Numbered from the stretch's first letter, positions 3,785 through 55,025 are shown. The stretch is DNA of 64,000 bases from Desulfobacteraceae bacterium Eth-SRB1 (GCA_004193555.1 RPGP01000001.1:192114-256113); one strand, 5' to 3'. Program-made: numbers and translations. The notes: generated by a model not told the origin, from the sequence alone.

Positions 3785-3966
3785 AAAAGATGAACGTCCA
3801 ACATCGAACAATGAACGTCCAACATCGAATAATGAAACAAAACACCCAATGAGAAACAAATGTTCAGGGATATTTGGTTGCTGTTTTTCTGACCTCCGAC
3901 CTCTGTTTCTTTGTTTTTCCCATTCGATGTTCAATGTTGGACGTTCGATGTTCGATGTTCATTGTT
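3785..3966. repeat. GAACATC-heptamer palindromic intergenic element (B-type), copy 1
   Basis: The left arm is aaaagatgaacgtccaacatcgaacaatgaacgtccaacatcgaataatg. The right arm is cattcgatgttcaatgttggacgttcgatgttcgatgttcatt. The loop includes a short CCGACCT-type run. Confidence 0.85.
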
Positions 3967-6790: not shown

Positions 6791-7666
6791 CTACTGCTTA
6801 AACACCTCAGCACAAAATTCCCCCAGGGTGCATAGATCTTCGCACATATAAACCCCGCCTTCCTTCAATGCAGCAATTTTTTCCTGTGCCGTGCCTCTGC
6901 CGCCGCTCACAATTGCGCCGGCATGCCCCATCCGCCGTCCCGGGGGCGCTGTTAAACCTGCAATAAATCCAACAACCTTTTTTTTCATATTGTTATAAAT
7001 AAACTCGGCCGCCGCCTCTTCAGCGCTGCCACCAATCTCTCCAACCATAACAATCCCTTTGGTATCCGGATCCCTTTCAAAGGCATCCAGGCAATCTATA
7101 AAGCTTGTTCCAATTACCGGATCGCCTCCAATCCCTATACAGGTAGTCTGTCCTATTCCCTGCAGGGTTAGCTGATTTACAACTTCATATGTCAGGGTGC
7201 CGGAACGGGACACAACACCTATGGGGCCACCGGGTTTGTGTATAAACCCCGGCATAATGCCGACCTTGCACTGTCCCGGTGTAATGATGCCGGGACAATT
7301 TGGGCCGACAAGACGCGACCGGGCATTCCCCAGATAACTTCTGACTTTCATCATATCCAGAACCGGAATGCCTTCAGTAATTGCAACTATAATTTCAATG
7401 CCGTTATCTGCCGCTTCCACAATTGCATCTGTTGCATATTGCGGAGGAGCGAAAACCATACTGCAGTTTGCGCCGGTCTTATCAACAGCCTCGCCAACTG
7501 TATTAAACACAGGGATATCATCAATTCTTACCCTTCCCTTGCCAGGGGTTACCCCTGCAACAATATTTGTGCCGTACGCGATACATTGGTGAGTATGAAA
7601 CCGCCCCTCTTTCCCGGTTATGCCCTGAACTAACAGGCGTGTATTTTTATCAACAAATATGCTCAC
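6791..7666 (-). CDS. sucD: succinyl-CoA synthetase alpha subunit
   Basis: The ORF has [17 protein letters not shown] and MGHAGAI motifs. It overlaps sucC by 4 nt. Confidence 0.9.
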
Positions 7667-8859
7667 ACTTTATGCCTTTCCCCGCCCAGCATAGCTCCTG
7701 CCCCTGCAAACTCTGAAATTTTTTGCGCAGCATCCTTAAGATTCTCAGTATAAATCGGCTTAAAGCTGGATTCAAAAAGAATTCTGCGGCCTTCTTCAAT
7801 GTTGGTTCCATCCATGCGAACTATTACAGGTATATTTACATCTATCTTTTCAGCAGCCTGAACAACCCCTTTTGCCAGCACGTCGCAACGAAGTATCCCG
7901 CCAAAAATATTTATGAAAACCAGCTTCACATCCTTATCGCTGAGAATAATCCCGAAACCTTTTTCAACCATTTCAATGGTAGTGCCGCCGCCCACATCAA
8001 GAAAGTTGGCCGGCGCTGCGCCGGCAAGCTTTATTATATCCATGGTTGCCATTGCCAGGCCGGCTCCGTTTACCATATTGCCGACATTTCCATTCATTTT
8101 AATATAGTTGAGATTAAATCGTGAAGCTTCGACCTCAAGAGGATCCTCCTCCTCAATATCCCGATATTCAAGGATATTCCTGTGGCGGAACATGGAATTG
8201 TCATCAATGTCTATCTTTGCATCCAGAGCAACAATAGATTCTTTGGATGTAACCACAAGCGGATTTATCTCCGCCAGGGAGCAGTCGTAATCAACAAAAA
8301 GCCTGTACAGGCTCTGAAGCATTCCAACAAACTGCTTCCAGACAGAAGATGTAAGTTTCAGGTCAAAAGCGATTTCCCGGCAGTGAAAGGGCTGAATCCC
8401 CAGATTAGGATCAATAAAAACCCTGATTATTTTATCAGGGTCTGCTGCAGCCGCATCTTCAATATCGATCCCGCCTGCCTCGCTTGCCATAATAAGGATT
8501 TTTGAAGTTTTCCTGTCAATGATAATGCCGAGATAGAGTTCTTTATCTATTTCCAGCTTCTCTTCCACAAGTACCTTCCTGACAAGCTTTCCTTCCCGCC
8601 CTGTCTGGCTGGTAACAATTTTCGTTCCGATGATGCGGTGTGTCAGGCTGTAAACCTCATCAGTCGATCCCGCAAGTTTGATGCCTCCGCCTTTCCCCCG
8701 CCCACCGGCATGGATCTGGGCTTTTATAACGACCGGAAATCTTCCGATTCTACGAGCTGTTGCCCTGGCTTCGTCAGGGTCAAAAGCGATTCCTCCATCC
8801 GGCACACTAATGTTGTATTTTTTAAATAATTCTTTTGCCTGATATTCGTGAAGCCTCAT
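7663..8859 (-). CDS. sucC: succinyl-CoA synthetase beta subunit
   Basis: The ORF starts [12 protein letters not shown] and has an ATP-grasp and CoA-ligase domain pattern. Confidence 0.9.
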
Positions 8860-8883
8860 TATCTATATTTCCTAAAAATTTTA

Positions 8884-9047
8884 CCACGGAGCTAAAGTAA
8901 CAAAGAAAGTTATAAGTGAGCTAAAGTGCCTAAAGTGAGCTAAAGTTAAGGTATGCGCCTTTGGCGCTGCCAATTCTATATAAAAAATGGAGCAAAGCGA
9001 CTCATTAACTTTAGGCACTTTAGCTCACTTTAGGCACTCGTAACTTT
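8884..9047. repeat. CTAAAGT-type palindromic element (A-type), copy 2
   Basis: The element is near-identical to 659-798 and is the reverse complement of 13461-13640. Confidence 0.85.
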
Positions 9048-9055
9048 TTTACTGT

Positions 9056-11107
9056 TTACCCAATAACACAAAGCACATCGCCCTTTGCAACCGAATCGCC
9101 GGTGCTGAAATTGATCGTCTTGATTGTTCCGGCTACCGGAGACGGAAGGGCATTCTCCATCTTCATGGCCTCCAGAATCACAACAGACTCTCCCTTTTTG
9201 ACTGAATCGCCTATATGTTTTTGATAACTTATAATCATGCCGGGCATGGGCGACGTCAGCGGAGCGCCGTCAGCATCACTTTTTTCCCTAACTGCAGGCG
9301 CAGATTCCTTAACCGGTGGAGTAACGGAAGCGGCTGCCGGTCTGGGCGGCGCAAGAGCTGCAGGCGGCGCAGTAGAGGGAGAAAGTACAGGCGTCAGGGC
9401 TGCGGTCGGTACAGCCGGAACAGATGCTGATGCAGGTCTCTGCCGGACATAGCTCACAACCGGCGATCCTCCAGGCTCTTCCACGCCAACTTCAAAGTAT
9501 TCATCATCTACAAACACGTTAAATGTACGCAGGTTTTCCCCTTTGGGAGGAGCCTCTTTTTCCGCCTTTTCAACAAGCCTGCCGGCAAGAGCCTTTGCAA
9601 TCAGCTCCTGCTCAGCCTTAACATCTTCCAGGCTCTTTGGTTTTACTTCCGGAGGAGGCTCCTCCTTGCCGTATTTCCATTTCAAAAATCTTTTTCCCGT
9701 AACAGGATAAAGAGCGTATATAAGGACATCGTCCAGATCCACCGCAAGGCCCTTCACATCCTCTCTGGCCTTTTCCAGCTCAGGCTCCAGGACTTCGGCA
9801 GGCCTGCATGTAATCGGGTTCTCCCCCCTTGAATAACTTTTCAGGACTTTTCCCCTGACCTTTGGATTAATGGGAACAGGGGTTTTTCCATACAGTCCGT
9901 AGCACAGATCTTTTACCTGGTCCGTAATCATCCTGTATTGCTCATTTTCATCATCAAAAAGAACATTGTTAACTGTCTGAACCCCGACGATCTGGCTTGT
10001 GGGCGTTACGAGAGGAACCTGTCCAAGATCTTTTCTTACTTTCGGCAGCTCTGCATATACATCATTTAGCCTGTCCAGGGCATCCATTTCACGCAACTGG
10101 TTAACCAGATTTGAAAGCATTCCCCCGGGAGTCTGGTGGAGAAGCACATTGATATCGATTATTGACATTTTTTTGTCGTCCAGCAGATGCCGGTATTTGG
10201 GAAGCACATCCCTTTCAAGAATCTCGCTTATGGCTCCCAGGAGCTTGATGTCAAATCCGGTATCCCTGTTTGTTCCAAGAAGCGCCATAACAAACGGTTC
10301 AACCGCGGGATGTGACGTGCGGTATGCATAAGGGGACAGACAGGTGTCAATAATGTCAACGCCCGCTTCTATAGCCTTTAAATGAGCCATACAGGCCATG
10401 CCTGATGTAAAATGACTGTGAAGATGCACAGGAACCGAGACAATATCTTTTAACGCCCTGACAATGGCATATGCATCATAAGGGGCAATAAGACCGGCCA
10501 TATCCTTTATGCAGATGCTGTCCGCTCCCATCTTTTTTAGTTCTTTTGCCTTATTTATATAATAGTCAAGGTTGTAAACATCTCCGCCCATCCGGGGCTC
10601 GGTCATTGAATAACAGATACATCCCTGAAAATGTTTTCCGCATTCTTTTATAACAGGCACAACCGTTTCAAAGTTACGAAAGTCATTCAGCGCATCAAAT
10701 GTCCTGAATACATCGATACCGTTTGCGGCCGCTCGATCGACAAAGGCACGGGCAACGTCATCAGCATAATTCCTGTAGCCAACAAGATTTTGCGCTCTTA
10801 GAAGCATGGCAAAAGGGGTCTTCTTTAAATATCTTTTTAAAGTCCTTATCCTTTGCCAGGGGTCTTCATTCAAAAAACGGTGCATTGTATCAAATGTTGC
10901 GCCTCCCCATGTTTCCACAGCCCAGAATCCGACCTCGTCCATCATCTCTGCAACAGAAATCATGTCTTCAGTACGCCCCCTTGTGGCAAACAAAGACTGA
11001 TGACCGTCACGCAAGGACAAATCCATTACCCTAAGAGGGTTTTTTGCCTTAGGCCTGTCTTTGCTGTAATCCATTTTTGTGATCTCTACCTTATTATGGT
11101 CGCTCAT
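9056..11107 (-). CDS. methylmalonyl-CoA:pyruvate transcarboxylase 5S-type subunit (oxaloacetate decarboxylase alpha-like) fused to a biotin carboxyl carrier domain
   Basis: An HMGL-like/PYC_OADA N-terminus (RDGHQS) is followed by a Pro/Ala-rich linker. The C-terminal biotinyl domain carries EAMKMEN. Confidence 0.8.
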   Translation of the reverse strand: MSDHNKVEITKMDYSKDRPKAKNPLRVMDLSLRDGHQSLFATRGRTEDMISVAEMMDEVGFWAVETWGGATFDTMHRFLNEDPWQRIRTLKRYLKKTPFAMLLRAQNLVGYRNYADDVARAFVDRAAANGIDVFRTFDALNDFRNFETVVPVIKECGKHFQGCICYSMTEPRMGGDVYNLDYYINKAKELKKMGADSICIKDMAGLIAPYDAYAIVRALKDIVSVPVHLHSHFTSGMACMAHLKAIEAGVDIIDTCLSPYAYRTSHPAVEPFVMALLGTNRDTGFDIKLLGAISEILERDVLPKYRHLLDDKKMSIIDINVLLHQTPGGMLSNLVNQLREMDALDRLNDVYAELPKVRKDLGQVPLVTPTSQIVGVQTVNNVLFDDENEQYRMITDQVKDLCYGLYGKTPVPINPKVRGKVLKSYSRGENPITCRPAEVLEPELEKAREDVKGLAVDLDDVLIYALYPVTGKRFLKWKYGKEEPPPEVKPKSLEDVKAEQELIAKALAGRLVEKAEKEAPPKGENLRTFNVFVDDEYFEVGVEEPGGSPVVSYVRQRPASASVPAVPTAALTPVLSPSTAPPAALAPPRPAAASVTPPVKESAPAVREKSDADGAPLTSPMPGMIISYQKHIGDSVKKGESVVILEAMKMENALPSPVAGTIKTINFSTGDSVAKGDVLCVIG

Positions 11108-11130
11108 CTTATATTTCTCCTTTTAAATAG

Positions 11131-11262
11131 TGCCTAAAGCGCCTAAAATATGTTAAAGTGCCTAAAGTTAAGGTATCGCTTCGCTCTGTTTTTTATATAA
11201 AATTAGCAAAATTCCATAACTTTAGGCACTTTAGCTCACTTTAGGCACTTGTAACTTTGCTT
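11131..11262. repeat. CTAAAGT-type palindromic element (A-type), copy 3
   Basis: The arms are gtgcctaaagcgcctaaaatatgttaaagtgcctaaagttaagg and taactttaggcactttagctcactttaggcac. The core is tcgcttcgctc. Confidence 0.8.
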
Positions 11263-11469
11263 TTGAAAGGTCTTCATCTGCATCAGATTGCGCATCTGCA
11301 TCTGCGCCTGCCTGCCGCTTATACCCCACAGCTTCAACTGAACCTGAGTTGATAAATACGGAGTCTGATTAAAAGCATCGGCAGGCTGATTACATATAAT
11401 CTCTTCCCCTGCCCCGATATAATTTATAACCGCAGATATTGCGGCTGCCATTTTCTTTTTGTTTTCCAT
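11236..11469 (-). CDS. small hypothetical protein between transcarboxylase 5S and 12S genes
   Basis: This is a 77-aa ORF in operon position. Its last 6 codons and stop lie inside the A-type repeat arm. No family was recognised with confidence. Confidence 0.35.
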   Translation of the reverse strand: MENKKKMAAAISAVINYIGAGEEIICNQPADAFNQTPYLSTQVQLKLWGISGRQAQMQMRNLMQMKTFQKQSYKCLK

Positions 11470-11485
11470 CTTGAGTGCTCTTTTA

Positions 11486-11883
11486 AGTTACAAATGACTA
11501 AAGTGACTACTGTAAGTGCCTAAAGTGAGCTAAAGTATATTAAAGTGCCTAAAGTTGTGGTACGCCTTCGGCGTGTTAATTTTAAAGTTATAAGCGCCTA
11601 AGGTAATGTAGTGAACTACTGGCTATCTTTACTTCGATTTCTACAAAACTTTGACAGTCTCGTAAAAAGTCGAAAAATACCGTTTTTCGTCATTCCGGTA
11701 AAAACCGGAATCCAGTCTTTTCAAGTAGTTACAGAACATCTGGACTCCGGTTTTCACCGGAGTGACGACTTTTTACGAGTTCATCAACTTTAGCTCACTT
11801 GCAGTTTTCAAATAAGCAGCGCCGAAGGCGCATTCCTTAACTTTAGGCACTTTAATATACTTTAGGCACTTTAGCTCACTAAA
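11486..11883. repeat. composite A-type element: 4HB-gene deletion derivative with a nested TIR element
   Basis: The left arm and 5' region match 24696-24770. Bases 11607-11655 match the last ~50 nt of the 4HB gene at 25085-25134. The right arm matches 25176-25222. Confidence 0.8.
11659..11779. repeat. nested small element with 14-bp terminal inverted repeats CTCGTAAAAAGTCG / CGACTTTTTACGAG
   Basis: The 14-bp TIRs are perfect. Internal hairpins are attccggtaaaaaccggaat and ctccggttttcaccggag. Related ends occur at 22755-22880, 55026-55158 and 55925-55950. Confidence 0.7.
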
Positions 11884-13437
11884 TTACACCGGTATATTTC
11901 CATGTTTTTTAGGAGGTCTGGTCTCCCGCTTGCCGCACATTATTTCGAGGGCATCGATTAAACGGGATCTCGTTTCTGCCGGCACAATCACGGCATCAAT
12001 ATAGCCCCTGCTTGCCGCGCAATAGGGGTTTGAAAAAAGATCCTCATACTCTTTGATTTTTTCTTTGCGCATAGCGTCAGAATTTTCGGCCGCCTTAATC
12101 ACTCTACGATGGATGATATTAGCCGCGCCGCCGGCTCCCATTACCGCGATCTGAGCGCTTGGCCACGCAAATGCCATATCAGCGCCGAGATGCTTTGAAG
12201 ACATTGCAATATAAGCGCCTCCGTAATCCTTGCGGGTAATAAGAAGCATTTTCGGAACCGTAGCTTCTGAATAACACCAGAGAAGTTTTGCGCCGTGCCG
12301 TATAATCCCTCCCCATTCCTGATGGCTCCCTGGAAGATAACCCGGGACATCGGCTATAGTCAGTATCGGGATGTTAAAGGAATCGCAAAAACGTATAAAC
12401 CGGGTAGCTTTGTCCGAAGCATCAATATCAAGACATCCCGCAAGAAACATGGGCTGGTTTGCGATAATGCCGATGGTTCTCCCGTTCAGCCTGGCAAAAC
12501 AAACAATTATATTCCTGGCATAATGCTCATGCGGCTCAAAAAATTCTCCATTGTCAACTATCGATCTTATCACATCAGTCATGTCATATGGCTGGTTCGG
12601 ATTGTCAGGAATAATTGAATTAAGAGCGAAATCTGTCCGCCCGCTAACATCACCTGTATCCTCAACAGGCGGATCCTCCATGTTGTTTGACGGCAGATAT
12701 GAAAGCAGTTTTTTTATTTTATTTATAGCATCTTCATCGTTTTCACCCGCAAAATGGGCAACCCCGCTTTTTTCGTTGTGCGCCATGGCTCCGCCGAGAT
12801 CCTCAAATGTAATTTCCTCTCCTGTAACAGACTTTATAACCTCAGGGCCGGTAATAAACATATAACTGCTGTTTTTTACCATAAAAACAAAATCCGTCAT
12901 GGCCGGTGAATAAACTGCTCCGCCGGCTGTGGGCCCCATTATCGCCGATATCTGGGGAATAACGCCCGAACAGGCTGAATTACGAAAAAAAATCTCCCCG
13001 TATCCGGAAAGGGAATCAATCCCTTCCTGTATTCTGGCTCCTCCGGAATCATTAATCCCGACAAAAGGCACGCCTGCCTTTAGGGCTAAATCCATAACCT
13101 TACAGATCTTTTTAGCCTGCATTTCACCAAGGCTGCCCGCCCTGGATGTAAAATCCTGTGAAAAGGCAAAAACAGGCCTTCCGTCAACAAGACCATGGCC
13201 TGTTATCACGCCGTCGGATGGAATCTCAACCTTTTCCATACCGAAATTTACGCATCTGTGCGCAACAAACATATCGATTTCCCGGAATGTATCAGAATCG
13301 AATAAATGATTTAATCTTTCCCTTGCGGTCAATTTTCCTTTTTCATGCTGCTTTGCAACCAGCTTTTCGCCGCCCATCTGCATGATTTTCTTTTCCCGCT
13401 TTTTCAAATCCTTTATTCCATCTTCCACAATACCCAT
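11884..13437 (-). CDS. methylmalonyl-CoA carboxyltransferase 12S subunit / propionyl-CoA carboxylase beta-type
   Basis: The 517-aa ORF belongs to the carboxyl transferase family, with motifs GGARIQEG and ITRKDYGGAY. Confidence 0.85.
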   Translation of the reverse strand: MGIVEDGIKDLKKREKKIMQMGGEKLVAKQHEKGKLTARERLNHLFDSDTFREIDMFVAHRCVNFGMEKVEIPSDGVITGHGLVDGRPVFAFSQDFTSRAGSLGEMQAKKICKVMDLALKAGVPFVGINDSGGARIQEGIDSLSGYGEIFFRNSACSGVIPQISAIMGPTAGGAVYSPAMTDFVFMVKNSSYMFITGPEVIKSVTGEEITFEDLGGAMAHNEKSGVAHFAGENDEDAINKIKKLLSYLPSNNMEDPPVEDTGDVSGRTDFALNSIIPDNPNQPYDMTDVIRSIVDNGEFFEPHEHYARNIIVCFARLNGRTIGIIANQPMFLAGCLDIDASDKATRFIRFCDSFNIPILTIADVPGYLPGSHQEWGGIIRHGAKLLWCYSEATVPKMLLITRKDYGGAYIAMSSKHLGADMAFAWPSAQIAVMGAGGAANIIHRRVIKAAENSDAMRKEKIKEYEDLFSNPYCAASRGYIDAVIVPAETRSRLIDALEIMCGKRETRPPKKHGNIPV

Positions 13438-13460
13438 TGTTATTTCCTTTCGTTAAGCAA

Positions 13461-13640
13461 GTTACGAGTGCCTAAAGTGAGCTAAAGTGCCTAAAGTTAA
13501 TGAGTCGCTTTGCTCCATCTTTTATATAGAATTGGCAGCGCCAAAGGCGCATACCTTAACTTTAGCTCACTTTAGGCACTTTAGCTCACTTGTAACTTTT
13601 TTTGTTACTTTAGCTTACTTTAAATCTCTGTGTTCTCCGT
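13461..13640. repeat. CTAAAGT-type palindromic element (A-type), copy in inverse orientation
   Basis: The element is the reverse complement of the 8884-9047 element, including the outer ccacgg...gttac flank. Confidence 0.85.
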
Positions 13641-13642
13641 GG

Positions 13643-14617
13643 TTAATAAAGTTCAAGCAGCCTACATGCCGCATTTATGGGCGCAATCAACCCTTTTTCA
13701 ACAGCCCTTTTCATTTCCGGCAACTCTCTTTTAACATCAGTGTTGTTATAAAACCGTTGTTTAAGCCCTTCTTCAAGCAGAGACCACATCCAGTCAACAG
13801 CCTGTCTCTTCCTCTTTGCCTCTAACTCTCCCGTAGCGGCGAGCTTTTCCATGTGAAGTAATATGGTCTTCCATATCTCATCTATGCCTCTCATTTCAAG
13901 TGCGCTGCAGGTTAAAACAGGAGGCGTCCATGTCGGAGATGAAGGTATCAAAAAATGCAGGGCAGATTCAACCTCTTTTCTCGCTTTTTCAGCCTTTTCA
14001 ATATTGTCGCCGTCAGCCTTGTTTATGGCAACAGCATCGGCCAGCTCTGAAATCCCCTTTTTCATTCCCTGGATTTCATCACCGGCTCCGGCCAGCATAA
14101 GAACCAAAAAAAAATCGACCATGGAGGCCACGGCGGTCTCAGACTGGCCTACCCCGACTGTCTCAACAATAATTACATCAAAACCGGAGGCTTCGCACAC
14201 AAGTATTGTTTCCCTGGTTTTTCCTGCAACCCCTCCCAGGGTGCCGCCCGAAGGAGAAGGCCGTATAAACGCCCTTTCCTCAACAGAAAGCTTTTCCATG
14301 CGGGTTTTGTCTGCCAGGATACTCCCCCCGCTCCTCTGGCTGCTTGGATCAACTGCAAGAACCGCCACACGATGCTCCCTGTTCACAAGCGTCATGCCAA
14401 GGTTCTCAATAAATGTACTCTTACCAGCGCCCGGAACCCCTGTAATGCCAAGCCGAACACCTTTTCCCGTGTATGAAAGCAGCTCATCAACAATTATCCG
14501 CGCCAGATCCTGATGGGCCGGAAGGGAGCTTTCAATCAGCGTAATGGTCTTTGCAAGCGCCAGCCTGTCATGCTCCAGCACACCCTGGATATAATATTGA
14601 TAATTATCCGCAATCAT
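13643..14617 (-). CDS. meaB: methylmalonyl-CoA mutase-associated GTPase MeaB (ArgK family)
   Basis: The P-loop GVPGAGKST and motifs ETVGVGQSE and NKAD are present. The gene is adjacent to the mutase. Confidence 0.85.
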   Translation of the reverse strand: MIADNYQYYIQGVLEHDRLALAKTITLIESSLPAHQDLARIIVDELLSYTGKGVRLGITGVPGAGKSTFIENLGMTLVNREHRVAVLAVDPSSQRSGGSILADKTRMEKLSVEERAFIRPSPSGGTLGGVAGKTRETILVCEASGFDVIIVETVGVGQSETAVASMVDFFLVLMLAGAGDEIQGMKKGISELADAVAINKADGDNIEKAEKARKEVESALHFLIPSSPTWTPPVLTCSALEMRGIDEIWKTILLHMEKLAATGELEAKRKRQAVDWMWSLLEEGLKQRFYNNTDVKRELPEMKRAVEKGLIAPINAACRLLELY

Positions 14618-14656
14618 TTTTTAGTATTTAGATTTAATCCTTACAAAGTTGTTTTG

Positions 14657-14795
14657 AAAGATGAACGTCCAACATCGAACATTGAACGTCGAACATCGAA
14701 TAATGATGTCGCTCCGCTCCGCCAGTTTATAAATTAGCAGAATACCTTATTCAACATTCGATGTTGGACGTTCGATGTTCGACGTTCATCTTTTT
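14657..14795. repeat. GAACATC-heptamer palindromic element (B-type), copy 2
   Basis: Arms built of gaacgtc/caacatc/gaacatt units flank the core aataatgatgtcgctccgctccgccagtttataaatt. The right end supplies the mutase stop codon. Confidence 0.85.
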
Positions 14796-16906
14796 TCTAA
14801 AGCCTTCAGTGTCTTATTCGCCGATTCGGTAATAACCGTGCCGGGCCCAAATATGCCTGCCACGCCTGCTTTATAGAGAAAATCATAATCCGCGGGCGGT
14901 ATTACTCCTCCAACAAACACAATAATATCCCCGCCGCCTTTCTTTCTTAACGCGTCTATAAGCTGCGGAACAAGAATCTTGTGCCCCGCGGCAAGACTCG
15001 ACACACCAACGGCATGCACATCGTTTTCAACAGCCATATTGGCGGCTTCCTCCGGAGTCTGAAACATGGGGCTGATATCTACATCAAATCCAAAGTCAGC
15101 ATACGCTGTGGCGACAACTTTAATACCACGATCATGACCGTCCTGCCCCATCTTTGTCATAAGTATCCTCGGCCTTCTCCCCTCCTTTTCCATAAAGGCC
15201 TCAGTCCTCTTCCTGAGGGAAGCGATTATCTCGCTGTCTCCATATTCAGCAGAATAAACACCGGATATACACCGGCTTACAGCCACATACCTTCCAAAAA
15301 CCTTTTCCATGGCATCTGTGATTTCTCCAACGGTTGCCCTTGCTCTAACTGCAGGGATGCATACTTCGAGAAGATTTCCTCCTGATTCAGCACATTTCGT
15401 AACGGCCTCAAGAACCTTTTTCACAGCAGCGGAACCACGTTTTGCCCTGATCTCTTTTAATCTTACAATCTGCTCATCACGGACAGAATCTGAAACCTCT
15501 AAAACATCAAGCCGGGCTTCTTCTTCTATACGGTATTTATTTACACCAACAATAACATCCCTGCCCTGGTCTATCCTTGCCTGCTTTATGGCTGCGGACT
15601 CTTCAATTCTCAGCTTCGGCATGCCGGATTCAATAGCCCTGGCCATGCCGCCAAGCTCTTCAACCTCTTTCATGATCTTTTTCGACTCCCTGATTATTCC
15701 ATTGGTCAGGGCTTCAATATAATATGAGCCTCCAAGAGGATCCACAACATGACATATCTGGGATTCGTCCTGAACTATTAACTGTGTATTCCTGGCGATC
15801 CTCGCTGACAATTCGGTTGGAAGCCCAACAGCTTCGTCAAAAGAGTTTGTATGAAGAGACTGGGTTCCTCCAAGGGTAGCGGACAGGCATTCAAGGGTGG
15901 TTCGTATTATATTATTATAAGGGTCCTGCTGGGCGAGACTCCAGCCGGATGTCTGGCAGTGGGTTCTTAACATGAGCGATTTGGGATTTTTAGGTTCAAA
16001 CCTGCTTATTATCTCAGACCACAAAAAACGGGCTGCCCTTAACATGGCTATTTCCATGAAAAAATTCATTCCTATCCCGAAGAAAAAGGAAAGGCGCGGA
16101 GCAAAAGTGTCGATATCAAGCCCTGCATCAAGCGCTGCTCTGACATATTCCAGCCCGTCGGCAAGAGTAAATGCTGTCTGAAGAACAGAATTTGCTCCTG
16201 CCTCCATCATATGATAACCGCTTATACTTACGGTGTTGTATTTAGGCATATTTTTTGAGCAAAAACCTATGATATCGGAGACTATCCTCATGGACGGTTT
16301 TGGAGGATAAATATAGGTATTTCTTGTAAGATATTCCTTTAATATATCGTTCTGTATCGTGCCCATGAGCTTATCCTGGGGCACACCCTGCTCCTCGGCC
16401 GCGACTATATATCCGGCAAGCACAGGCAAAACAGCGCCGTTCATGGTCATGGAAACAGACATCTTGTCCAGCGGTATTCTGTCAAAAAGGATCTTCATAT
16501 CCTCCACAGAGTCAATTGCCACTCCTGCCTTGCCGATATCGCCAACAACCCTTGGATGATCCGAATCATAACCCCTGTGAGTAGCCAGATCAAAGGCCAC
16601 TGAAAGTCCTTTCTGACCTGCGGCAAGGTTCTTTCTATAAAATTCGTTAGACTCCTTTGCCGTGGAAAAACCTGCATACTGACGAATAGTCCATGGACGG
16701 CCGGCATACATAGTGGCTTTCACCCCGCGAACATACGGAGCAAACCCGGGAAATGTATTCACGCATTCAAGCCCTTCCAGATCTTCGGCAGTATAAAGCG
16801 GCTTTACATTTATCCCTTCCGGAGTCATCCAGTTCAGTGAGTCAAGAGGTTTCCCCCTCAACTCCTTTTCCGCTAATTCAATCCATTTATTTTTATCAGG
16901 ATGCAT
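14786..16906 (-). CDS. methylmalonyl-CoA mutase, catalytic domain fused to B12-binding domain
   Basis: Mutase large-subunit motifs and a C-terminal GQDGHDRG cobalamin-binding motif are present. The start is moved to MHPDKNKW at 16906 because the upstream 18 codons are repeat-arm sequence. Confidence 0.9.
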
Positions 16907-16938
16907 AGCTATAATATATTTCCTTTTACAAGGTCGTT

Positions 16939-17080
16939 TAAAAAGATGAACGTCCAACATTGAACATCGAACATCGAACGTCGAATAATGATGTCGCTCC
17001 GCTCCGCCAGTTTATAAATTGGCAAAATACCTTATTCAACATTCGATGTTGGACGTTCGATGTTCGATGTTCATTTTTTT
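16939..17080. repeat. GAACATC-heptamer palindromic element (B-type), copy 3
   Basis: The element is about 90 percent identical by eye to 14657-14795, including the core. Confidence 0.85.
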
Positions 17081-17123
17081 CTGTCCCTCAATCCCTTAAC
17101 ACTTAGCACCTAACACCTAATCC

Positions 17124-17525
17124 CTATCTTTCACACAATTCAACCAGAACCCCGTTTGTCGATTTAGGGTGCAGAAAAGCTATTTTTGCGCCCCCCGCGC
17201 CCTTCCTCGGCTTTTCATCAACAAGCCTTATCCCTTTCTCCTTTAATTCCGCCAGCGCCTCTTCGATATTTTCCACAAGAAAGGCAACGTGATGTATCCC
17301 CTCCCCCCTCTTTTCCAGATATTTTCCGATAGGCCCATCAGGGTCGGTAGATTCAAGCAGCTCGATCTCACTTTCTCCAATCGGGAAAAAAGCTGTAATA
17401 AGCTTTTCATCCGCCATTACTTCACTGTCTTCAAGCCAGAGCCCTAAACGGTCTCCCCAGAATTTTTTTCCTTTATTGATGCTATTTACTGCAATCCCTA
17501 AATGATCAATTTTTATTACCTTCAT
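17124..17525 (-). CDS. mce: methylmalonyl-CoA epimerase (VOC/glyoxalase family)
   Basis: The ORF has IDHLGIAV and GIHHVAF motifs. The start is set at MKVIKIDH because upstream codons are repeat sequence. Confidence 0.8.
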   Translation of the reverse strand: MKVIKIDHLGIAVNSINKGKKFWGDRLGLWLEDSEVMADEKLITAFFPIGESEIELLESTDPDGPIGKYLEKRGEGIHHVAFLVENIEEALAELKEKGIRLVDEKPRKGAGGAKIAFLHPKSTNGVLVELCER

Positions 17526-17548
17526 GAAATCTCCTTTTAAAAGGTTCA

Positions 17549-17689
17549 AACTAAAGTGCCTAAAGTGAGCTAAAGTGCCTAAAATGCCTAAAGTTAAGGA
17601 GTCGCTCCGCTCCGGTTGTTTCCAAATTGAGGAGCGAAGCGACAACAACATTCATCATTCGATGTTGGACGTTCGATGTTCATCTTTTT
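17549..17689. repeat. chimeric element: CTAAAGT arm + GCTYCGCT core hairpin + GAACATC arm
   Basis: The left arm is A-type and the right arm is B-type. The central 13-bp stem is gtcgctccgctcc/ggagcgaagcgac. The element is the reverse complement of 23045-23178. Confidence 0.85.
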
Positions 17690-17719
17690 CAATCCCCTAA
17701 TCCTCTAATCCTCTAATCC

Positions 17720-17761
17720 AACACCTAACACTTAACACCTAACACTTAACACCTAACACTT
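17720..17761. repeat. 6 x heptamer array AACACCT/AACACTT
   Basis: Two heptamers alternate perfectly. The array is preceded by TAATCCTC octamers and abuts the aminotransferase stop codon. Confidence 0.85.
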
Positions 17762-18945
17762 CATCCCCTATACTTATCCATTGCCTTTTTAAACCCCGGC
17801 ATAGAATTAATTATAGTTTCATCATCCACGCAGAAAGCGATCCTAAAGTGTCCGGGCGCGCCAAAACCGCTTCCCGGCACAACAAGTATCAATTCTTCCT
17901 GAAGCGTCTTTACAAATTCAACATCATCAGGAATCGGAGTCCTGGGAAAAAGATAGAAAGCTCCCGGAGGCCTGAGAAACTCATATCCGCTGTCTGCAAG
18001 GCCATTGCATAAAAGATCCCTTTTCCTTGCATATTCGGAAACATCCACGCTCATCCCCTGTATGGATGCCACAACCCGCTGCATAAGGGCAGGGGCGTTT
18101 ACAAACCCTAAAATCCTGTTGGCAAGGGCCATGCCCCCTAAAAGATTCTCCTTAAAGGAAGCGTCCGGGTTAACCGCAATAAATCCTATGCGCTCTCCTG
18201 GAATCGAAATATCCTTGGAATATGAAGTGGCGATTATGCTTTCATTATAGCAGGAAAATATACTTGGCACTTTAAGCCCGTCATATACTATCTTCCGGTA
18301 CGGCTCATCTGAAATCATATAGATTGTCCTGCCGGAACTGTTGCTCCTGTCTTTTAAAAGAGCGCCAAGTTCATTGAGGCTCTCTTTTGAATATACCTGG
18401 CCTGTGGGATTGTTCGGCGAATTTATCAGGACAGCCTTGGTTTTTTCAGTAATTGCGGATGAAATAGCGTCAATATTCAGGGAAAAATCGGGTTTTGTCG
18501 AAACAGTCTTTAATACACCGCCATGATTGTCTGCATAAAAACTGTATTCTACAAAATAGGGAGCAGGAGTTATAACCTCATCTCCAGGATCAAGTATAGC
18601 CTTCAGTATAACATTAAGGCCTCCTGCCGCTCCGCATGTCATGATAATCTCATTTTCAGAAATTCGCGCCTGCTGCTCCGCGGAAAGATAATCCGCCACA
18701 GATTTGCGTACATGCGGATAACCGGTATTCGGCATATAAGCATGGTTTCTGTCTCCGGATGCGGATGCAGCCTCTATAAGAGCTTTCCTGAACTCTTCCG
18801 GAGGCTTCAAGTTCGGATTGCCCAGGCTGAAGTCAAAAACATTATCCGCCCCATGCTCTGCCTTAAGCCGCGCCCCATCTTCAAACATCTTCCGGATCCA
18901 GGATGCCCTTGACATCATTGTTTCAATCTTTTTCGCTATTGTCAT
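17761..18945 (-). CDS. pyridoxal phosphate-dependent aminotransferase (class I/II, aspartate/alanine type)
   Basis: The ORF has NPNNPTG and SYSKD motifs. The start is at MTIAKK, preceded by GGAGG; upstream codons are repeat-derived. Confidence 0.8.
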   Translation of the reverse strand: MTIAKKIETMMSRASWIRKMFEDGARLKAEHGADNVFDFSLGNPNLKPPEEFRKALIEAASASGDRNHAYMPNTGYPHVRKSVADYLSAEQQARISENEIIMTCGAAGGLNVILKAILDPGDEVITPAPYFVEYSFYADNHGGVLKTVSTKPDFSLNIDAISSAITEKTKAVLINSPNNPTGQVYSKESLNELGALLKDRSNSSGRTIYMISDEPYRKIVYDGLKVPSIFSCYNESIIATSYSKDISIPGERIGFIAVNPDASFKENLLGGMALANRILGFVNAPALMQRVVASIQGMSVDVSEYARKRDLLCNGLADSGYEFLRPPGAFYLFPRTPIPDDVEFVKTLQEELILVVPGSGFGAPGHFRIAFCVDDETIINSMPGFKKAMDKYRG

Positions 18946-19004
18946 ATTTAACAAACCTCCATGTTCACGGTTTTCCGACTTCCGACCTCCGACCTCTAAT
19001 CCCT

Positions 19005-19229
19005 TCACGCCTGTTCCACAGATTTTACCTCCGGTATCTCCTGTTTCAGCAATCTTTCTATTCCGTTTTTAAGGGTCATCTGCGACATGGGGCATCCGGC
19101 GCATGCGCCCTGCAGGCGCACAGTAACCACTCCGTCTTTATAATCGATCAGCTCCACATCGCCTCCGTCTGCCTGGAGCATCGGCCTGATTTTGTTGATT
19201 ATTTCCTGAATTTTTTCCTTCACAATCAA
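19005..19229 (-). CDS. NifU-like Fe-S cluster assembly domain protein
   Basis: The 74-aa ORF has the GGDVEL and CxGCP (ACAGCPMS) motifs of the NifU C-terminal domain. Confidence 0.8.
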   Translation of the reverse strand: MIVKEKIQEIINKIRPMLQADGGDVELIDYKDGVVTVRLQGACAGCPMSQMTLKNGIERLLKQEIPEVKSVEQA

Positions 19230-19247
19230 ATTCCTCCTTATTTTTTT

Positions 19248-19333
19248 ACCACTGAGATCACAGAGAACACAGAGAATTTTCTTTTTGTTTTTTTATATAT
19301 TATCCCTCTGTGGTCTCTGTGGGCTCTGTGGTT
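19248..19333. repeat. CACAGAG 9-mer hairpin
   Basis: accactgagatcacagagaacacagagaa pairs with ccctctgtggtctctgtgggctctgtggt. The hairpin ends on the tgt stop codon. Confidence 0.8.
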
Positions 19334-20453
19334 AATCCTTCTTTTTAGCGGCTAAACTGTTATAAAATTTCTCTCTGAACACCTCAAACTTATCATCAAT
19401 TATTGCCTTTCGCATATTCTTCATCAAGCCGACATAATAGTTTATATTATGAATTGTATTTAAACGATAGGCAAGCAGTTCTTTTGACATATAAAGGTGG
19501 CGCAGATAAGCCTTGGAATAATTTCTGCACGTATAACATGTACACCCCTGCTCCACAGGCTCTTTATCATACTTGAACCGTGAATTAGATATGTTTATCG
19601 TGCCGCAGCTTGTAAACAACTGCCCGTTCCTGGCATTTCTGGTGGGCATAACACAATCAAACATGTCTGCGCCAAGGGCAACAAGCTCGACAATATCCTC
19701 AGGAGTTCCCACGCCCATGATGTATTTGGGCTTATTATCAGGCAGCTCAGGCAGCGTAAAATCCGCAATATCAAGCATTATATCTTTTGGTTCGCCCACG
19801 CTCAACCCGCCGATTGCATAGCCGCTGAAACCGATGTCAACGAGAGCTTCAACAGACATCTCCCTTAGATCCTTGAACATCCCACCCTGAACAATACCGA
19901 AAAGAGCGGATTTTGAACCATTATCCCATGCTGTTTTACATTTTTCAGCCCAGCTTGTGGTAAGTTTAAGGGCGTACATTGCTTCATCTCTGCTTGACGG
20001 ATATGCAATGCAATTATCGAGGCACATCATTATATCAGAACCGAGACAGTTTTGTATTTCAACCGCCTTTTCAGGTGTCAGCAAATGGCTCGATCCATCG
20101 ATATGAGATTGAAATGAAACCCCCTCGGGAGATATTTTCGCAAGCTTTGCAAGGGAAAATATCTGAAATCCGCCGCTATCCGTCAGAATTGGCCTGTTCC
20201 AGTTCATAAATCTGTGCAAGCCGGAAAAGAGGCTTATCACATCGCAACCCGGCCTTAAGTACAAATGGTATGTATTCCCCAAAATTATACTGGCTCCGGC
20301 GCCCGCAAGCTCTTCCGGAGACACCGATTTCACGCTTGCAAGAGTGCCCACAGGCATAAACACAGGTGTTTCAATCACACCGTGAGAAGTCTGCAACAGC
20401 CCCGCCCGGGCTCTTGTCTTTTTAGATTTTGCTGTTATCTTAAAATTGAACAT
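19332..20453 (-). CDS. tgt: tRNA-guanine transglycosylase
   Basis: The ORF has TPVFMPVGT and DSGGFQ motifs and the zinc site CxCxxC...H. The start is set at MFNFKI. Confidence 0.9.
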   Translation of the reverse strand: MFNFKITAKSKKTRARAGLLQTSHGVIETPVFMPVGTLASVKSVSPEELAGAGASIILGNTYHLYLRPGCDVISLFSGLHRFMNWNRPILTDSGGFQIFSLAKLAKISPEGVSFQSHIDGSSHLLTPEKAVEIQNCLGSDIMMCLDNCIAYPSSRDEAMYALKLTTSWAEKCKTAWDNGSKSALFGIVQGGMFKDLREMSVEALVDIGFSGYAIGGLSVGEPKDIMLDIADFTLPELPDNKPKYIMGVGTPEDIVELVALGADMFDCVMPTRNARNGQLFTSCGTINISNSRFKYDKEPVEQGCTCYTCRNYSKAYLRHLYMSKELLAYRLNTIHNINYYVGLMKNMRKAIIDDKFEVFREKFYNSLAAKKKD

Positions 20454-20557
20454 GTTTAAATAATTTGGTTCACGGTTCAAGGTTCACGGTTCTCCAACTT
20501 CTAAACCCTGAACCCACAGTTACATAAACTTGACCATTATCTGAATAACGAAGATAT

Positions 20558-20685
20558 TAAAAGATGAACGTCCAACATCGAACATCGAATAATGAAATCG
20601 CTTCGCTCCGCCGGTTTATAAATTGGCAGAATACCTTATTCAAAATTCGACGTTGGACGTTCGATGTTCGATGTTTATTTTTTTC
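20558..20685. repeat. GAACATC-heptamer palindromic element (B-type), copy 4
   Basis: The core is aataatgaaatcgcttcgctccgccggtttataaatt. The element is followed by the shared module cagcgctactgctggg...gctacgatcc, also present at 22441-22490. Confidence 0.85.
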
Positions 20686-20776
20686 AGCGCTACTGCTGGG
20701 AACAGAGCCCCCACGCTACGATCCCTAATCCTCAAATCCCTTAATCCCCTAACACCTGACACTTAACACCTAACAC

Positions 20777-21838
20777 TTATATTATAACCATCGCATCCCC
20801 ATAACTGTAAAACCTGTACCTTTCCTTTATCGCCTCTTTGTATGCATTCAGAATACTTTCCCGTCCGGCAAAAGCCGATACAAGCATCAGCAGGGTTGAT
20901 TCAGGTAAATGAAAATTTGTAACCATTGCGTCTATAACTTTAAACCTGTAGCCGGGATATATAAAAAGATCGCAGTGTCCACCACCGGAAGCAATATGTC
21001 CGTTTTTATCCGATGCATACTCCAGAGTTCGCACACATGTTGTCCCTACAGCCACTATTCGGCTTCCCCGCTCTTTTGCAGTGTTGATTAACTCTGCGCT
21101 TTTCTTAGAAATATGAAACTGCTCGGAATGAATCATGTGATCCCTGATATCGCTCTCCCTTACAGGCAAAAAGGTGCCATATCCTACATGGAGGGTAATT
21201 TCTGCTGTCTTGACTCCAACACCCTTTATTTTTTCAATAAGACTTTCAGAAAAATGGAGACCTGCCGTAGGCGCCGCAATCGCCCCTTTTTCACTGGCAT
21301 ATACTGTCTGGTAAGACCTCTTGTCATCGCAGGCAGAGCCTTTGCCGTTTCTTTTAATATAAGGCGGAAGCGGCACATTCCCTATCCTGTAAAGCAGGGT
21401 TTCAAAATCTCCATCATATAAAAACCTTACATTAAAATATCCATTTCTAACTTCGAGCACTTCGGCTTTTAATCCCTGATCAAAAAAAAGCAGCGCTCCT
21501 GGTTTCGGACGTTTTGAAGCCTTTATAAGACATTCACATATAAATTCGCCGTTAGCCTCCCTTTTTACAGCGCCTCCGGCATAGTCAAGAATAAGGAGTT
21601 CCACCTTTCCGCCGGTTTCCTTGTTTCCAAAAAGACGTCCGGGGATAACCTCCGTATTGTTTATAACCAGTATGTCCGACGGCCGCAAAAGGTCGGAAAT
21701 TTCATAAAATAAATGATGGGACACTTCTCCTGTCCTGCGGCGCAAAAACAACAGCCTCGACCGGTCTCTCTGGTCTGCCGGCTTTTGAGCAATAAACTCT
21801 TCAGGAAAATCGTAGTTATAGTCAATAAGTGAGTACAT
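20777..21838 (-). CDS. queA: S-adenosylmethionine:tRNA ribosyltransferase-isomerase
   Basis: The ORF has DYNYDFPEEFIAQKP, PLPPYI and GTT.VRTLE motifs. The start is set at MYSLIDY; upstream codons are repeat arm. Confidence 0.9.
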   Translation of the reverse strand: MYSLIDYNYDFPEEFIAQKPADQRDRSRLLFLRRRTGEVSHHLFYEISDLLRPSDILVINNTEVIPGRLFGNKETGGKVELLILDYAGGAVKREANGEFICECLIKASKRPKPGALLFFDQGLKAEVLEVRNGYFNVRFLYDGDFETLLYRIGNVPLPPYIKRNGKGSACDDKRSYQTVYASEKGAIAAPTAGLHFSESLIEKIKGVGVKTAEITLHVGYGTFLPVRESDIRDHMIHSEQFHISKKSAELINTAKERGSRIVAVGTTCVRTLEYASDKNGHIASGGGHCDLFIYPGYRFKVIDAMVTNFHLPESTLLMLVSAFAGRESILNAYKEAIKERYRFYSYGDAMVII

Positions 21839-21845
21839 AATATTT

Positions 21846-22437
21846 AAAAGATGAACGTCCAACATCGAACATTGAACATCCAACATCGAATAATGCTATC
21901 GCTTCGCTCCTCAATTTATTTCTGTTTCTTTTCAGCCGTTCTGATACTCGTAACGAAAATCTTAATTAATTCCTCTGTTTCCTGTAAAATATCATCTAAT
22001 AGTTCAGGTTTTTTAATTAAAGGCACACGCTGAATAAGTTTTAACCATCGCTGGCTCTCCCTGAGTTCCTTTAATGAGATACGAAGCTTATGGATAAAGT
22101 CCTTTGGGGACTCCGCTGCCTGAGCTTCACCATGGTTTGGATAAGGTGAAGTTCCCGATCTTAACAATTGGCCAGCAACATGGTTGCCTGTTCTGGTATT
22201 TGGCATCTGTTCAACGATCTTTATTATTCGCACCGAATACTCGAGCAGCCTTTCTTCCAGATCATATGTTTGTTTCTTCATCTTTTCCCATTCAACGTTC
22301 GATGCTCATCCATTTGGATTGTTGATTGATGATTTTCTCGTTCCCACGCTCTTGCGTGTGAATTCATATTTGAAGGAGCGAAGCGACATCATCATTCAAA
22401 ATTCGATGTTGGACGTTCGATGTTCGATGTTCATTTT
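21846..22437. mobile_element. B-type hairpin element carrying a four-helix-bundle gene in its loop
   Basis: The left arm is 21846-21894 plus core tcgcttcgctcctc. The right arm is 22371-22437 (gaaggagcgaagcgac plus cgatgttggacgttcgatgttcgatgttcat). ORF 21916-22281 lies between them. Confidence 0.7.
21916..22281 (-). CDS. four helix bundle protein (23S rRNA intervening sequence protein family)
   Basis: The 121-aa ORF has motifs LLRSGTS, KDFIHKLRISLKELRE and W characteristic of the TIGR02436/PF05635 family. Confidence 0.85.
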   Translation of the reverse strand: MKKQTYDLEERLLEYSVRIIKIVEQMPNTRTGNHVAGQLLRSGTSPYPNHGEAQAAESPKDFIHKLRISLKELRESQRWLKLIQRVPLIKKPELLDDILQETEELIKIFVTSIRTAEKKQK

Positions 22438-22496
22438 TTTCAGCGCTACTGCTGGGGACAGAGCCCCCGTGCTACGATCCTTAATTCCCTAATCCC

Positions 22497-22682: not shown

Positions 22683-22960
22683 TTAATTCCTCTTTTTTAT
22701 CACGAAAACACGAAAGTACGAAAACACGAAGAAAAGCATAAAAAAGTATGATGAACCCGTAAAAAGTCATTCCAGAACCGCATCAAGCCCCACCCCTTCC
22801 CTTTCCTCTTCGTGGCCTTCGTGTTCTTCGTGGTACAACACACTCTGTGGTAAAAAATCGACTTTATACGAAACCGTCAAAATTTTATTTTATAAACTTA
22901 TGCACCCTGTTTTGTCAAAACAAAATGGCTTGACTATGCGCCGCATTAAGATATAAATTG

Positions 22961-23040
22961 TTCAGGAGTTCAGGAGTTCAGGAGTTCAGGAGTTCAGGAG
23001 TTCAGGAGTTCAGGGGTTCAGGGGTTCAGGGGTTCAGGGG
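22961..23040. repeat. 10-unit octamer tandem array (6 x TTCAGGAG then 4 x TTCAGGGG)
   Basis: A direct count gives 80 nt with period 8. Confidence 0.9.
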
Positions 23041-23044: not shown

Positions 23045-23178
23045 AAAAAGATGAACATCGAACGTCCAACATCGAATGATGAATGTTGTTGTCGCTTCGC
23101 TCCTCAATTTGGAAACAAACTGAGCGAAGCGACTCATTAACTTTAGGCACTTTAGCTCACTTTAGGCACTTTTTAACT
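23045..23178. repeat. chimeric element: GAACATC arm + GCTTCGCT core hairpin + CTAAAGT arm
   Basis: The first ~78 nt are identical to the reverse complement of 17549-17689. The core stem is gtcgcttcgctc/gagcgaagcgac. Confidence 0.85.
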
Positions 23179-25222: not shown

Positions 25223-25237
25223 TAGAAGGAGGAATTT

Positions 25238-26929: not shown

Positions 26930-27025
26930 AAAATTATCACAAAGCACGAAGGTACGAAAACACGAAAAAATGACTGAAAAAAGAAAGATAACTCCAAAAA
27001 TCATGAATGAAGTGAGGACATAAAC

Positions 27026-30243: not shown

Positions 30244-30271
30244 TCCAGTAATTACAATTTGATTTTCTTTT

Positions 30272-30351
30272 TTCGTGTTTTCGTGTTTTCGTGTTTTCGT
30301 GTTTTCGTGTTTTCGTGTTTTCGTGTTTTCGTACTTTCGTGCTTTCGTGAT
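30272..30351. repeat. 10-unit octamer tandem array (7 x TTCGTGTT + 3 variants)
   Basis: A direct count gives period 8. The array lies between the convergent DUF5615 and mutL genes. Confidence 0.9.
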
Positions 30352-55010: not shown

Positions 55011-55025
55011 CAGATCACCTCAATA

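Follow-up and report, generated by a model that had tools for sequence, protein, structure and literature searches.

What occupies the gaps between the genes of an operon, and why should a repeat sit in every one of them? The question is raised by a methylmalonyl-CoA pathway operon in a 64,000-nt stretch of DNA from Desulfobacteraceae bacterium Eth-SRB1 (GCA_004193555.1 RPGP01000001.1:192114-256113; hereafter the window), whose intergenic gaps are filled with hairpin-forming repeat elements. The original prediction for this locus took them for devices comparable to repetitive extragenic palindromic (REP) sequences and bacterial interspersed mosaic elements (BIMEs), one long stem per junction, that could set the stoichiometry of the encoded subunits. 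Here, we report a different account. The junction elements are, in our judgment, quite likely derivatives of selfish cassettes of the intervening sequence (IVS) type that have lost their open reading frame (ORF), i.e., elements resembling miniature inverted-repeat transposable elements (MITEs), and they belong to families that are found in gaps throughout the window.

The evidence starts from two cassettes in the window that still hold a gene. The A-type cassette (24696-25225, plus strand) has A arms around a gene named here ivpA (24781-25134); it directly follows the stop codon of gatB, and 8 nt separate its end from the following gene's ribosome-binding site. The B-type cassette (21843-22440, minus strand) has B arms and core motifs around ivpB (21916-22281) and is co-oriented with queA. 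Both gene products match PF05635 (ivpA, E 8e-21; ivpB, E 1.2e-13), the "23S rRNA intervening sequence protein" (IVP) family, as well as TIGR02436, the "four helix bundle protein" family, and ivpA also hits PDB 2RLD at E 3e-20. Unlike ordinary palindromes, the arms consist of three to five tandem copies of a short unit, CTAAAGTGC / CTAAAGTGAG with a period of 9-10 nt in type A and TTCGATG / TTGGACG with a period of 7 nt in type B. Within the operon, the element at 11486-11883 (398 nt, plus strand) is an A-type cassette from which most of the IVP gene has been deleted: both cassette ends are kept, the left end matches that of the ivpA cassette, and the last 15 IVP codons survive at 11607-11651 (13/15 amino acids, E 0.002). 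The B elements that lack an ORF have both arms and a subterminal segment, GGAGCGGAGCGAC-ATCATTA, in common with B cassettes found in metagenomes. From the IVP remnant and from these shared arms and subterminal segment, it follows that IVP cassettes gave rise to the junction elements of types A and B by internal deletion. This parent-derivative relation is established for types A and B only, and a search of 166 loci for other IVP clades returned only these two.

The operon itself agrees with its earlier description as far as the genes are concerned. Pfam bears out sucC (7663-8859), 5S/BCCP (9056-11107), 12S carboxyltransferase (11884-13437), MeaB (13643-14617), mutase (14786 to ~16930), epimerase (17124 to ~17537), aminotransferase (17761-19008), NifU (19005-19229), and tgt (19332-20480), and a conserved small ORF of 77 codons (11236-11469) lies between the 12S and 5S genes; every gene is on the minus strand. 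The gaps had been said to hold a hairpin each, with a potential stem of 35-45 bp. Repeats are indeed present in all eight gaps from sucC to tgt, and elements in seven of them, folded on the transcribed strand and scored against dinucleotide shuffles, are far more stable than the shuffles (z -5.1 to -14.3) with stems of ~25-47 bp; the eighth, at 17549-17761, barely folds, its stem being only 13 bp. There is no gap, and hence no element, at sucD/sucC and at aminotransferase/NifU, where the genes overlap by 4 nt.

Going along the operon from sucC, the sucC / 5S-BCCP gap holds an A-type element without ORF, 162 nt long (8890-9051; fold of 8884-9051, minimum free energy (MFE) -56.5 kcal/mol, z -5.1), near-identical to another outside the operon at 652-813. 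It is built of CTAAAGTGAG/CTAAAGTGC arms around a GCGCC-TTT-GGCGC mini-hairpin, an AT-rich centre, and a GGAGCAAAGCGAC core. The same element lies inverted in the 12S / MeaB gap (13454-13615, again without ORF; fold of 13454-13620, MFE -61.5 kcal/mol, z -5.8), the two being 97% complementary over 162 nt, so that the earlier observation of an A-type element in both orientations is correct. It is followed by a D-type fragment of CTCTGTG units (13620-13642) that abuts the MeaB stop codon. A short A-type element (11128-11265; MFE -52.0 kcal/mol, z -7.9) lies in the 5S-BCCP / small ORF gap, and the cassette remnant at 11486-11883 folds at -168.6 kcal/mol (z -14.3). Two B-type elements without ORF, both on the minus strand, occupy the MeaB / mutase gap (14655-14797; 47-nt TTCGATG/TTGGACG arms and a GTCGCTCCGCTCC core; MFE -64.0 kcal/mol, z -9.9) and the mutase / epimerase gap (16938-17082; 92-93% identical to the former; MFE -57.8 kcal/mol, z -7.4). 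Next to the latter, direct C-type heptamers, CACCTAA/CACTTAA, run across the epimerase stop codon and form no hairpin (17088-17126). The NifU / tgt gap carries a D-type hairpin, three CACAGAGAA units against three CTCTGTGGT units with an AT-rich loop (19245-19335; MFE -34.5 kcal/mol, z -7.2). At 17549-17761 the predicted repeats exist, but the long hairpin does not: a chimera of an A arm and a B arm (17549-17692; z -2.1), with a 13-bp core stem GTCGCTCCGCTCC / GGAGCGAAGCGAC and outer arms that are non-complementary, is joined to direct repeats that cross the aminotransferase stop codon (AATCCTCT x3.6, then AACACCT/AACACTT x5.7; 17691-17769; MFE 0).

Some of these elements reach into the genes. 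The mutase stop codon sits in the edge of the B element 14655-14797. The element 11128-11265 overlaps the stop codon and the last ~9 codons of the small ORF, of which the final ~6 consist of element sequence, and MeaB ends in LLELY, lacking an LFFLDN tail that is kept in six relatives; insertions thus rewrote the C-termini of two genes. A conserved TTTTTTCTTGACAA found after meaB in relatives was considered as an internal promoter and dropped, since it encodes this very LFFLDN tail. A scan for promoters and terminators gave a signal only weakly above shuffles. Please note also that the 5' end of the aminotransferase ORF, when called from GTG 19008, includes a heptamer array, (TCCGACC) x3.3 at 18974-18996; alignments to the aminotransferases of relatives begin only at residue 10-22, and translation may therefore start downstream of this array.

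Between the arms, the elements have modules in common, namely, the core GGAGCGAAGCGAC or its complement, a TGCCAATT...TATAAA centre, and GC-rich mini-hairpins. The chimera at 17549-17692 has its modules repeated in reverse-complement orientation at 23047-23175, and these two A/B chimeras indicate that modules recombine. Elements end in AAAGATGAAC (B) or CTAAAGTG (A), and in B elements the stem is followed by a T-run, which makes them terminator-like. Besides A and B, five other unit types were recognized: C (CACCTAA / CACTTAA, 7 nt), D (CACAGAGAA, 9 nt), E (CACGAAAA, 8 nt), F (GTTCAGGA, 8 nt), and G (GATTGAT, 7 nt). An unrelated inverted-repeat element is nested at ~11655-11780 in the A-type remnant 11486-11883. 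It is a member of a further family, TCGTAAAAAGTCG ... CGACTTTTTACGA, seen at 11655-11780, 55011-55154, 55930-55950, and 22755-22775 and, in a related metagenome contig (L086, reverse complement), at 3000-3140; since this family is nested in the remnant and itself hosts a C-type hairpin at 55011-55154 and in L086, elements evidently nest within one another. An Rfam scan of the whole window matched only a thiamine pyrophosphate (TPP) riboswitch and no family that covers the elements, and a tRNA scan of the window found none.

Are the elements a property of this operon? The pattern extends beyond sucC-tgt, e.g., at 652-813 (A-type, no ORF), 20560-20779, and 21843-22440. B-type elements without ORF lie in the tgt / queA gap (20560-20682, minus strand) and, outside the operon in the opposite orientation, at 36415-36548 (plus strand), and a B-type element with a different loop is located at 3790-3966. 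Over the window, the A motif matches 24 times against 0.03 expected and the B motif 55 times against 0.72 expected. Tandem Repeats Finder arrays with periods of 7, 8, 9, and 10 nt are present in 24 of the 40 window gaps of at least 40 nt, a number that rises to ~29/40 when matches to the family motifs and inspection are added. Element families thus occupy 8/8 operon gaps versus ~21/32 other gaps (hypergeometric p ~0.06). They are not operon-specific; genome-wide families occupy tolerant gaps.

Orthologous operons lead to the same answer. The gene order queA-tgt-nifU-(aat)-epi-mcm-meaB-12S-small-5S-sucC-sucD recurs in metagenome-assembled genomes (MAGs) of Desulfobacterales, which are also the closest relatives by mutase (identity up to 83%), and neither the A nor the B motif occurs at any of the 80 mutase loci from relatives. 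In five relatives with matching gene order (L001, L006, L007, L010, L013), the junctions are ordinary, 2-350 nt long, and free of elements. A sixth (L004) carries tandem-repeat hairpins in most gaps of the cluster, built of units unrelated to those of the window (CTTCGTGCC, CCAAACA, GTTCAGGG, a GGAAT-type unit, and GCCCGTTT) together with a shared core, TCGCTTCGCTCAATTGGCA. Because matching gaps hold other units in L004, such gaps have been colonised repeatedly and independently. The comparison with relatives proposed as a check of the original prediction is in this way answered, and the suggestion that the elements set subunit stoichiometry finds no support: about two-thirds of the other gaps are occupied, both orientations occur, and most relatives do without elements. 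In the tgt-nifU gap of L004, a CACGAAGA/CTTCGTGCC hairpin was seen that is related to E-type arrays.

Outside the window, too, each type of arm accompanies its own clade of protein, in many genomes that are unrelated. The ivpA family is very large, with at least 7,977 matches among 8,000 candidates, many of them on very short contigs. Three of three A-clade relatives, i.e., a JGI sediment contig, a Desulfobacterales MAG, and a Scalinduaceae MAG, are flanked by A arms. For the B clade, a metagenome scan with ivpB gave 80 loci at 71-97% identity, of which 59 have both flanks available. At least three B units stand on a flank in 52 of the 59 and on both flanks in 37; the remaining seven have B-like arms by eye. 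A units were found around none of the 59 loci, and none of 355 control windows scored. ivpB is co-oriented with its upstream neighbour in 44/50 loci and with its downstream neighbour in 32/44, and the arms run from the upstream stop codon to just before the next ribosome-binding site. As a separate observation, many metagenome B cassettes lie inside a second, outer inverted repeat, CCATAAGCGCTAAGTTGTTTTTG ... CAAAATAACTTAGCGCTTATGG (L089, L090, L096, L098, L104, L109, L115, and others), and in L089, L090, L094, L099, and L109 the 5' arm and the start of the ORF are duplicated, as if a cassette had landed in a cassette.

The pairing extends to plasmids. Among IVP genes from PLSDB, 14 of 15 inspected have inverted tandem-repeat arms with a unit of their own, in hosts that span Cyanobacteriota, Bacteroidota, Chloroflexota, Spirochaetota, and Bacillota. 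On cyanobacterial plasmids, inverted short-tandem-repeat arms flank 9 of 10 IVP genes, and the units are mostly heptamers: AATTCGT in Nostoc flagelliforme and Dolichospermum, AATTCGC in Nostoc N6, GTCGGAG in N. punctiforme, AATTCAA in Aulosira, TTTTAGA in Gloeocapsa and Chlorohelix, and AATCGTA in Planktothrix; Bernardetia has TTAGTGA, and further examples come from Chondrinema, Treponema, and Monoglobus. IVP proteins with a shared heptamer are mutual best hits, and unit switches occur. The plasmid genes sit between co-oriented host genes, such as sensor kinase/response regulator, hsdS/hsdR, drmD/MmeI, DUF1156/Swt1 (twice), and RND adaptor/permease; one lies between cas2 and cas1, both of which are encoded on the other strand. 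This insertion may explain why, in a CRISPR survey, a figure legend on new CRISPR associations names "23S rRNA IVP" (PMC10910872). The insertions into defence and transport loci (L166, L170, L173, L174, L175, L176, L178) include a helicase-methylase pair, and the DUF1156-Swt1 HEPN pair is hit in two phyla. Our literature search, with subscription journals largely outside its reach, found no paper tying the PF05635/TIGR02436 family to tandem-repeat arms, and the link between protein and arms appears to be undescribed and general.

The following model combines these observations. A full cassette is a four-helix-bundle gene of ~117-121 codons (PF05635/TIGR02436) between inverted arms, each of 4-5 copies of a 7-10-nt unit, and it occupies the space from a host stop codon to the following ribosome-binding site; being co-oriented with their hosts, such cassettes are expected to be transcribed by host read-through. 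Loss of the ORF leaves hairpin elements of 120-160 nt, whose arms, GGAGCGAAGCGAC core, and GC mini-hairpins are reshuffled by recombination, and these derivatives would spread into tolerant gaps genome-wide, every gap of this operon included. In polycistronic RNA, each 25-47-bp stem could serve as an RNase III substrate in the manner of the stems of rRNA intervening sequences. RNase III probably cuts the operon elements, by analogy to the 23S rRNA intervening sequences that it cuts, a kinship that makes such processing more plausible; the transcript would then be severed at the junctions with stem halves left on the new ends. Cassettes may be tolerated where a break in the RNA does no harm, i.e., in intercistronic gaps and in rRNA helices, and the IVP protein may recognise the units of its own arms. 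Any effects on relative expression would on this model be a by-product and not a design, as we infer. More tentatively, and with less confidence than we have in the origin of the junction elements, we raise the possibility that TIGR02436/PF05635 genes in general are cargo of selfish cassettes with clade-specific tandem-repeat arms, excised by RNase III and shedding hairpins, with a protein that recognises its own unit; the IVS of rRNA, the short tandemly repeated repetitive (STRR) hairpins of cyanobacteria, and the hairpins of this genome might then have a common origin.

Several observations weigh against deriving the junction elements from selfish cassettes. Among the window proteins (64 kb) there is no transposase, REP-associated tyrosine transposase (RAYT), or reverse transcriptase, and no target-site duplication is seen at the borders of aligned element copies. 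No parent was found for the five types C-G, and we assume their derivation by analogy. In a covariation test, cognate and non-cognate arms paired equally well (-51.0 versus -49.6 kcal/mol, p 0.2), and selection for an RNA stem, as against a conserved arm sequence, is thus not demonstrated; any B arm pairs with any other, and arms conserved as sequence are as compatible with recognition of the unit, or with pairing that tolerates shifts of register, as with an RNA stem. Arm and protein also track each other imperfectly, the N. punctiforme IVP being 76% identical to a protein with a different heptamer. The last point concerns the metagenome contig L086, which is syntenic with the window over the tgt-gatB segment (77%, 78%, and 84% nucleotide identity for tgt, queA, and gatB, respectively) and has both the ivpB cassette (96%) and the tgt-queA B element (89%) at matching positions. 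Retention above the identity of the flanking genes (77-84%) could reflect a host function. We had expected the L086 B element to resemble the window copy at its own position more than the paralogues, and this failed: it is 89% identical to that copy and 80-93% to the other B copies of the window, so that descent and homogenisation are inseparable here. The contents of the other gaps differ between the window and L086, and the GTTCAGGA array, with 10 copies in the window versus 2 in L086 (reverse complement, ~3448-3465), varies in length between relatives.

This conservation of one B element and the ivpB cassette beyond their flanking genes is one of the points that favour devices specific to the operon, in which junction hairpins were selected as stabilisers, processing sites, or attenuators that set the amounts of transcarboxylase, mutase, MeaB, and epimerase. 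Stable stems on the transcribed strand at seven of eight junctions, the terminator-like T-run of the B elements, and the precise placement between stop and next start, with genes unbroken, go in the same direction. We still consider such devices unlikely, given that the families fill some two-thirds of unrelated gaps and occur in both orientations inside the operon, that five syntenic relatives are element-free with some junctions of just 2-60 nt, and that L004 has different units at the same junctions; moreover, one junction holds a non-folding chimera, and the clipped C-termini of MeaB and the small subunit look like insertion damage. In another scenario, the elements are REP/BIME-type palindromes spread by a RAYT (an IS200/IS605-like tyrosine transposase) encoded elsewhere in the genome. 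Their dispersal over intergenic DNA, their palindromic form, and their occurrence in both orientations would fit, but we give this scenario very little credence. They measure 90-400 nt and have tandem-unit arms, as opposed to the 20-40 nt and the GTAG or CGTC head of a REP (PMC3733652); the 64-kb window has no Y1 transposase; and at more than 75 loci, full-length relatives have a four-helix-bundle gene where a RAYT would be expected.

Action at the level of DNA deserves the same weight as operon-specific devices, i.e., it is rather improbable in our eyes. The 7-10-nt arrays would bind the IVP protein or a host factor for recombination, replication pausing, or nucleoid organisation, and the RNA hairpin would be incidental. 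It would explain why arm sequence is conserved across proteins of 71-97% identity without compensatory covariation, why unit type follows protein clade, why direct arrays that do not fold exist (17691-17769, 22960-23038, 30270-30349, and even in mutL at 31063-31242), and why array copy number differs (x10 in the window, x2 in L086). A binding array, however, needs no inverted arms, which are near-universal around the ORF (14/15 plasmid genes and practically every A or B locus); the strong co-orientation of ORF cassettes with host transcription suggests a life at the RNA level, and their relatives in rRNA undergo RNA processing (PMC4990558). Readings of the locus as a diversity-generating retroelement (DGR) or as a CRISPR were rejected because defining parts are missing; the reverse transcriptase that marks a DGR was found neither in the window nor among called or annotated neighbours of loci with gene tables, a search that left the ivpB metagenome loci unscanned. 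Descent from IVS-type cassettes through loss of the ORF thus remains the reading that we prefer.

How does this descent fit the repeat classes already known? The elements combine traits of IVS elements, STRR hairpins, and MITEs, and each known class differs in some feature. The IVS of rRNA is closed by a stem of terminal inverted repeats (28 bp in Coxiella), may carry a sense-oriented S23p/IVP ORF transcribed from the host promoter, and is excised by RNase III; ORF-bearing 23S rRNA IVS have been reported in Leptospira, Coxiella, Brucella, and Xanthomonas, and their origin and mobility are unexplained, an old proposal being that the ORF is a mobility factor (PMC4990558). The likeness to our cassettes lies in the PF05635/TIGR02436 protein, the inverted-repeat stem that encloses a sense ORF, and the existence of versions without ORF. 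Unlike the 23S rRNA IVS, which are placed in helices 9, 25, and 45, the cassettes here lie between protein-coding genes, in a window that has no rRNA; their arms are clade-specific tandem units of 7-10 nt in many copies per genome, and RNase III cleavage would hold here by analogy. The PF05635 family also includes Avd of DGRs (PMC10053308).

The STRR hairpins of cyanobacteria, e.g., the one in hupS-hupL, have been proposed, without proof, to act in stabilisation, translational coupling, or termination (PMC2670836). They resemble the present elements as short, mostly 7-nt tandem intergenic units in many copies with hairpins inside operons. The host here is Desulfobacterales-like, unlike the cyanobacteria of the STRR, and the account in PMC2670836 makes no link to a protein gene; our literature search likewise turned up no paper that does. 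Direct TAACTGA heptamers have been described in Beggiatoaceae, Cyanobacteria, and Bacteroidetes, mostly just upstream of start codons, and proposed as sites of a translational regulator (PMC4679880); the C-, E-, and F-type direct arrays of the window resemble these abundant intergenic heptamers, whose spread over distant phyla has no known mechanism. The TAACTGA repeats consist of a single unit in direct orientation, whereas the operon elements are mostly inverted pairs and several arrays sit at stop codons. The units of the window are not known to match any published STRR unit.

MITEs and modular repeats (Correia/NEMIS, ERIC, BOX, Nezha) are short, non-coding, dispersed elements with terminal inverted repeats, co-transcribed with their neighbours. 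Our elements are similar in having terminal inverted repeats, in arising by internal deletion of a longer coding parent, and in reshuffling modules as in BOX; they differ in the tandem units of the arms, in having no target-site duplication, and in a parent that encodes a four-helix-bundle protein and no recognisable transposase. REPs, in turn, are linked to RAYT transposases. A REP is an imperfect palindrome of 20-40 nt headed by GTAG or CGTC, and REP/BIME elements are extragenic palindromes in operons for which roles in mRNA stabilisation, termination, and supercoiling are hypothesised (PMC3733652). The earlier comparison to REP/BIME is fair as an analogy between dispersed extragenic palindromes; it fails on size, arms, and parent gene, the window having no 20-40-nt GTAG/CGTC palindrome and no RAYT among its proteins.

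A few other repeats of the window are recorded here. An E-type array, (TTTTCGTG) x10, lies at 30270-30349, with further E-type sites at 22701-22833, 26940-26970, and 59870-59890, and inverted CACGAAAA/CTTCGTGG pairs are present. The F-type array, (GTTCAGGA) x10 at 22960-23038, comes directly after a conserved promoter-like TTGACT-17 nt-TATAAAT upstream of gatB. A heptamer array also runs in frame through mutL (ORF 30453-32330, minus strand): (TCGGAGG) x25.7 at 31063-31242, between the regions for the N-terminal and C-terminal domains, encodes a linker with a 7-residue period, and the IVP gene carried by Nostoc punctiforme pNPUN01 (L168) has arms built from a rotation of this heptamer, GTCGGAG. 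The TPP riboswitch (RF00059, 70.2 bits; 53690-53781, minus strand) lies upstream of ThiD/ThiN, Thi4, and ThiC, and a broken B-type fragment is found in its gap at ~53505-53590. Identical 107-nt duplicates occur at 59191-59297 and 61088-61194, each preceded by a D-type ACCACAGAG array (59158-59185, in the 3' end of the ispG/GcpE ORF, and 61055-61082) and each followed by an ORF of 155 codons, the first of which (59298-59765) is ORF6N/Rha-like.

For this operon, the story of a built-in stoichiometry loses support, and in its place stand selfish hairpins that probably segment the transcript, a proposal that can be tested: the protein should bind the repeat unit, RNase III should cleave at the arms, and expression should come from read-through. 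The elements also alter the ends of neighbouring genes. IVP genes are often on very short contigs, possibly since the repeats break assemblies, and cassettes in defence and CRISPR operons (hsdS-hsdR, drmD-MmeI, cas2-cas1) can be mistaken for components of those systems. For the family as a whole, the account would tie three loose ends together, namely, the role of the IVS/S23p protein family, the origin of the rRNA intervening sequences, and the origin of tandem-repeat hairpins in operons.

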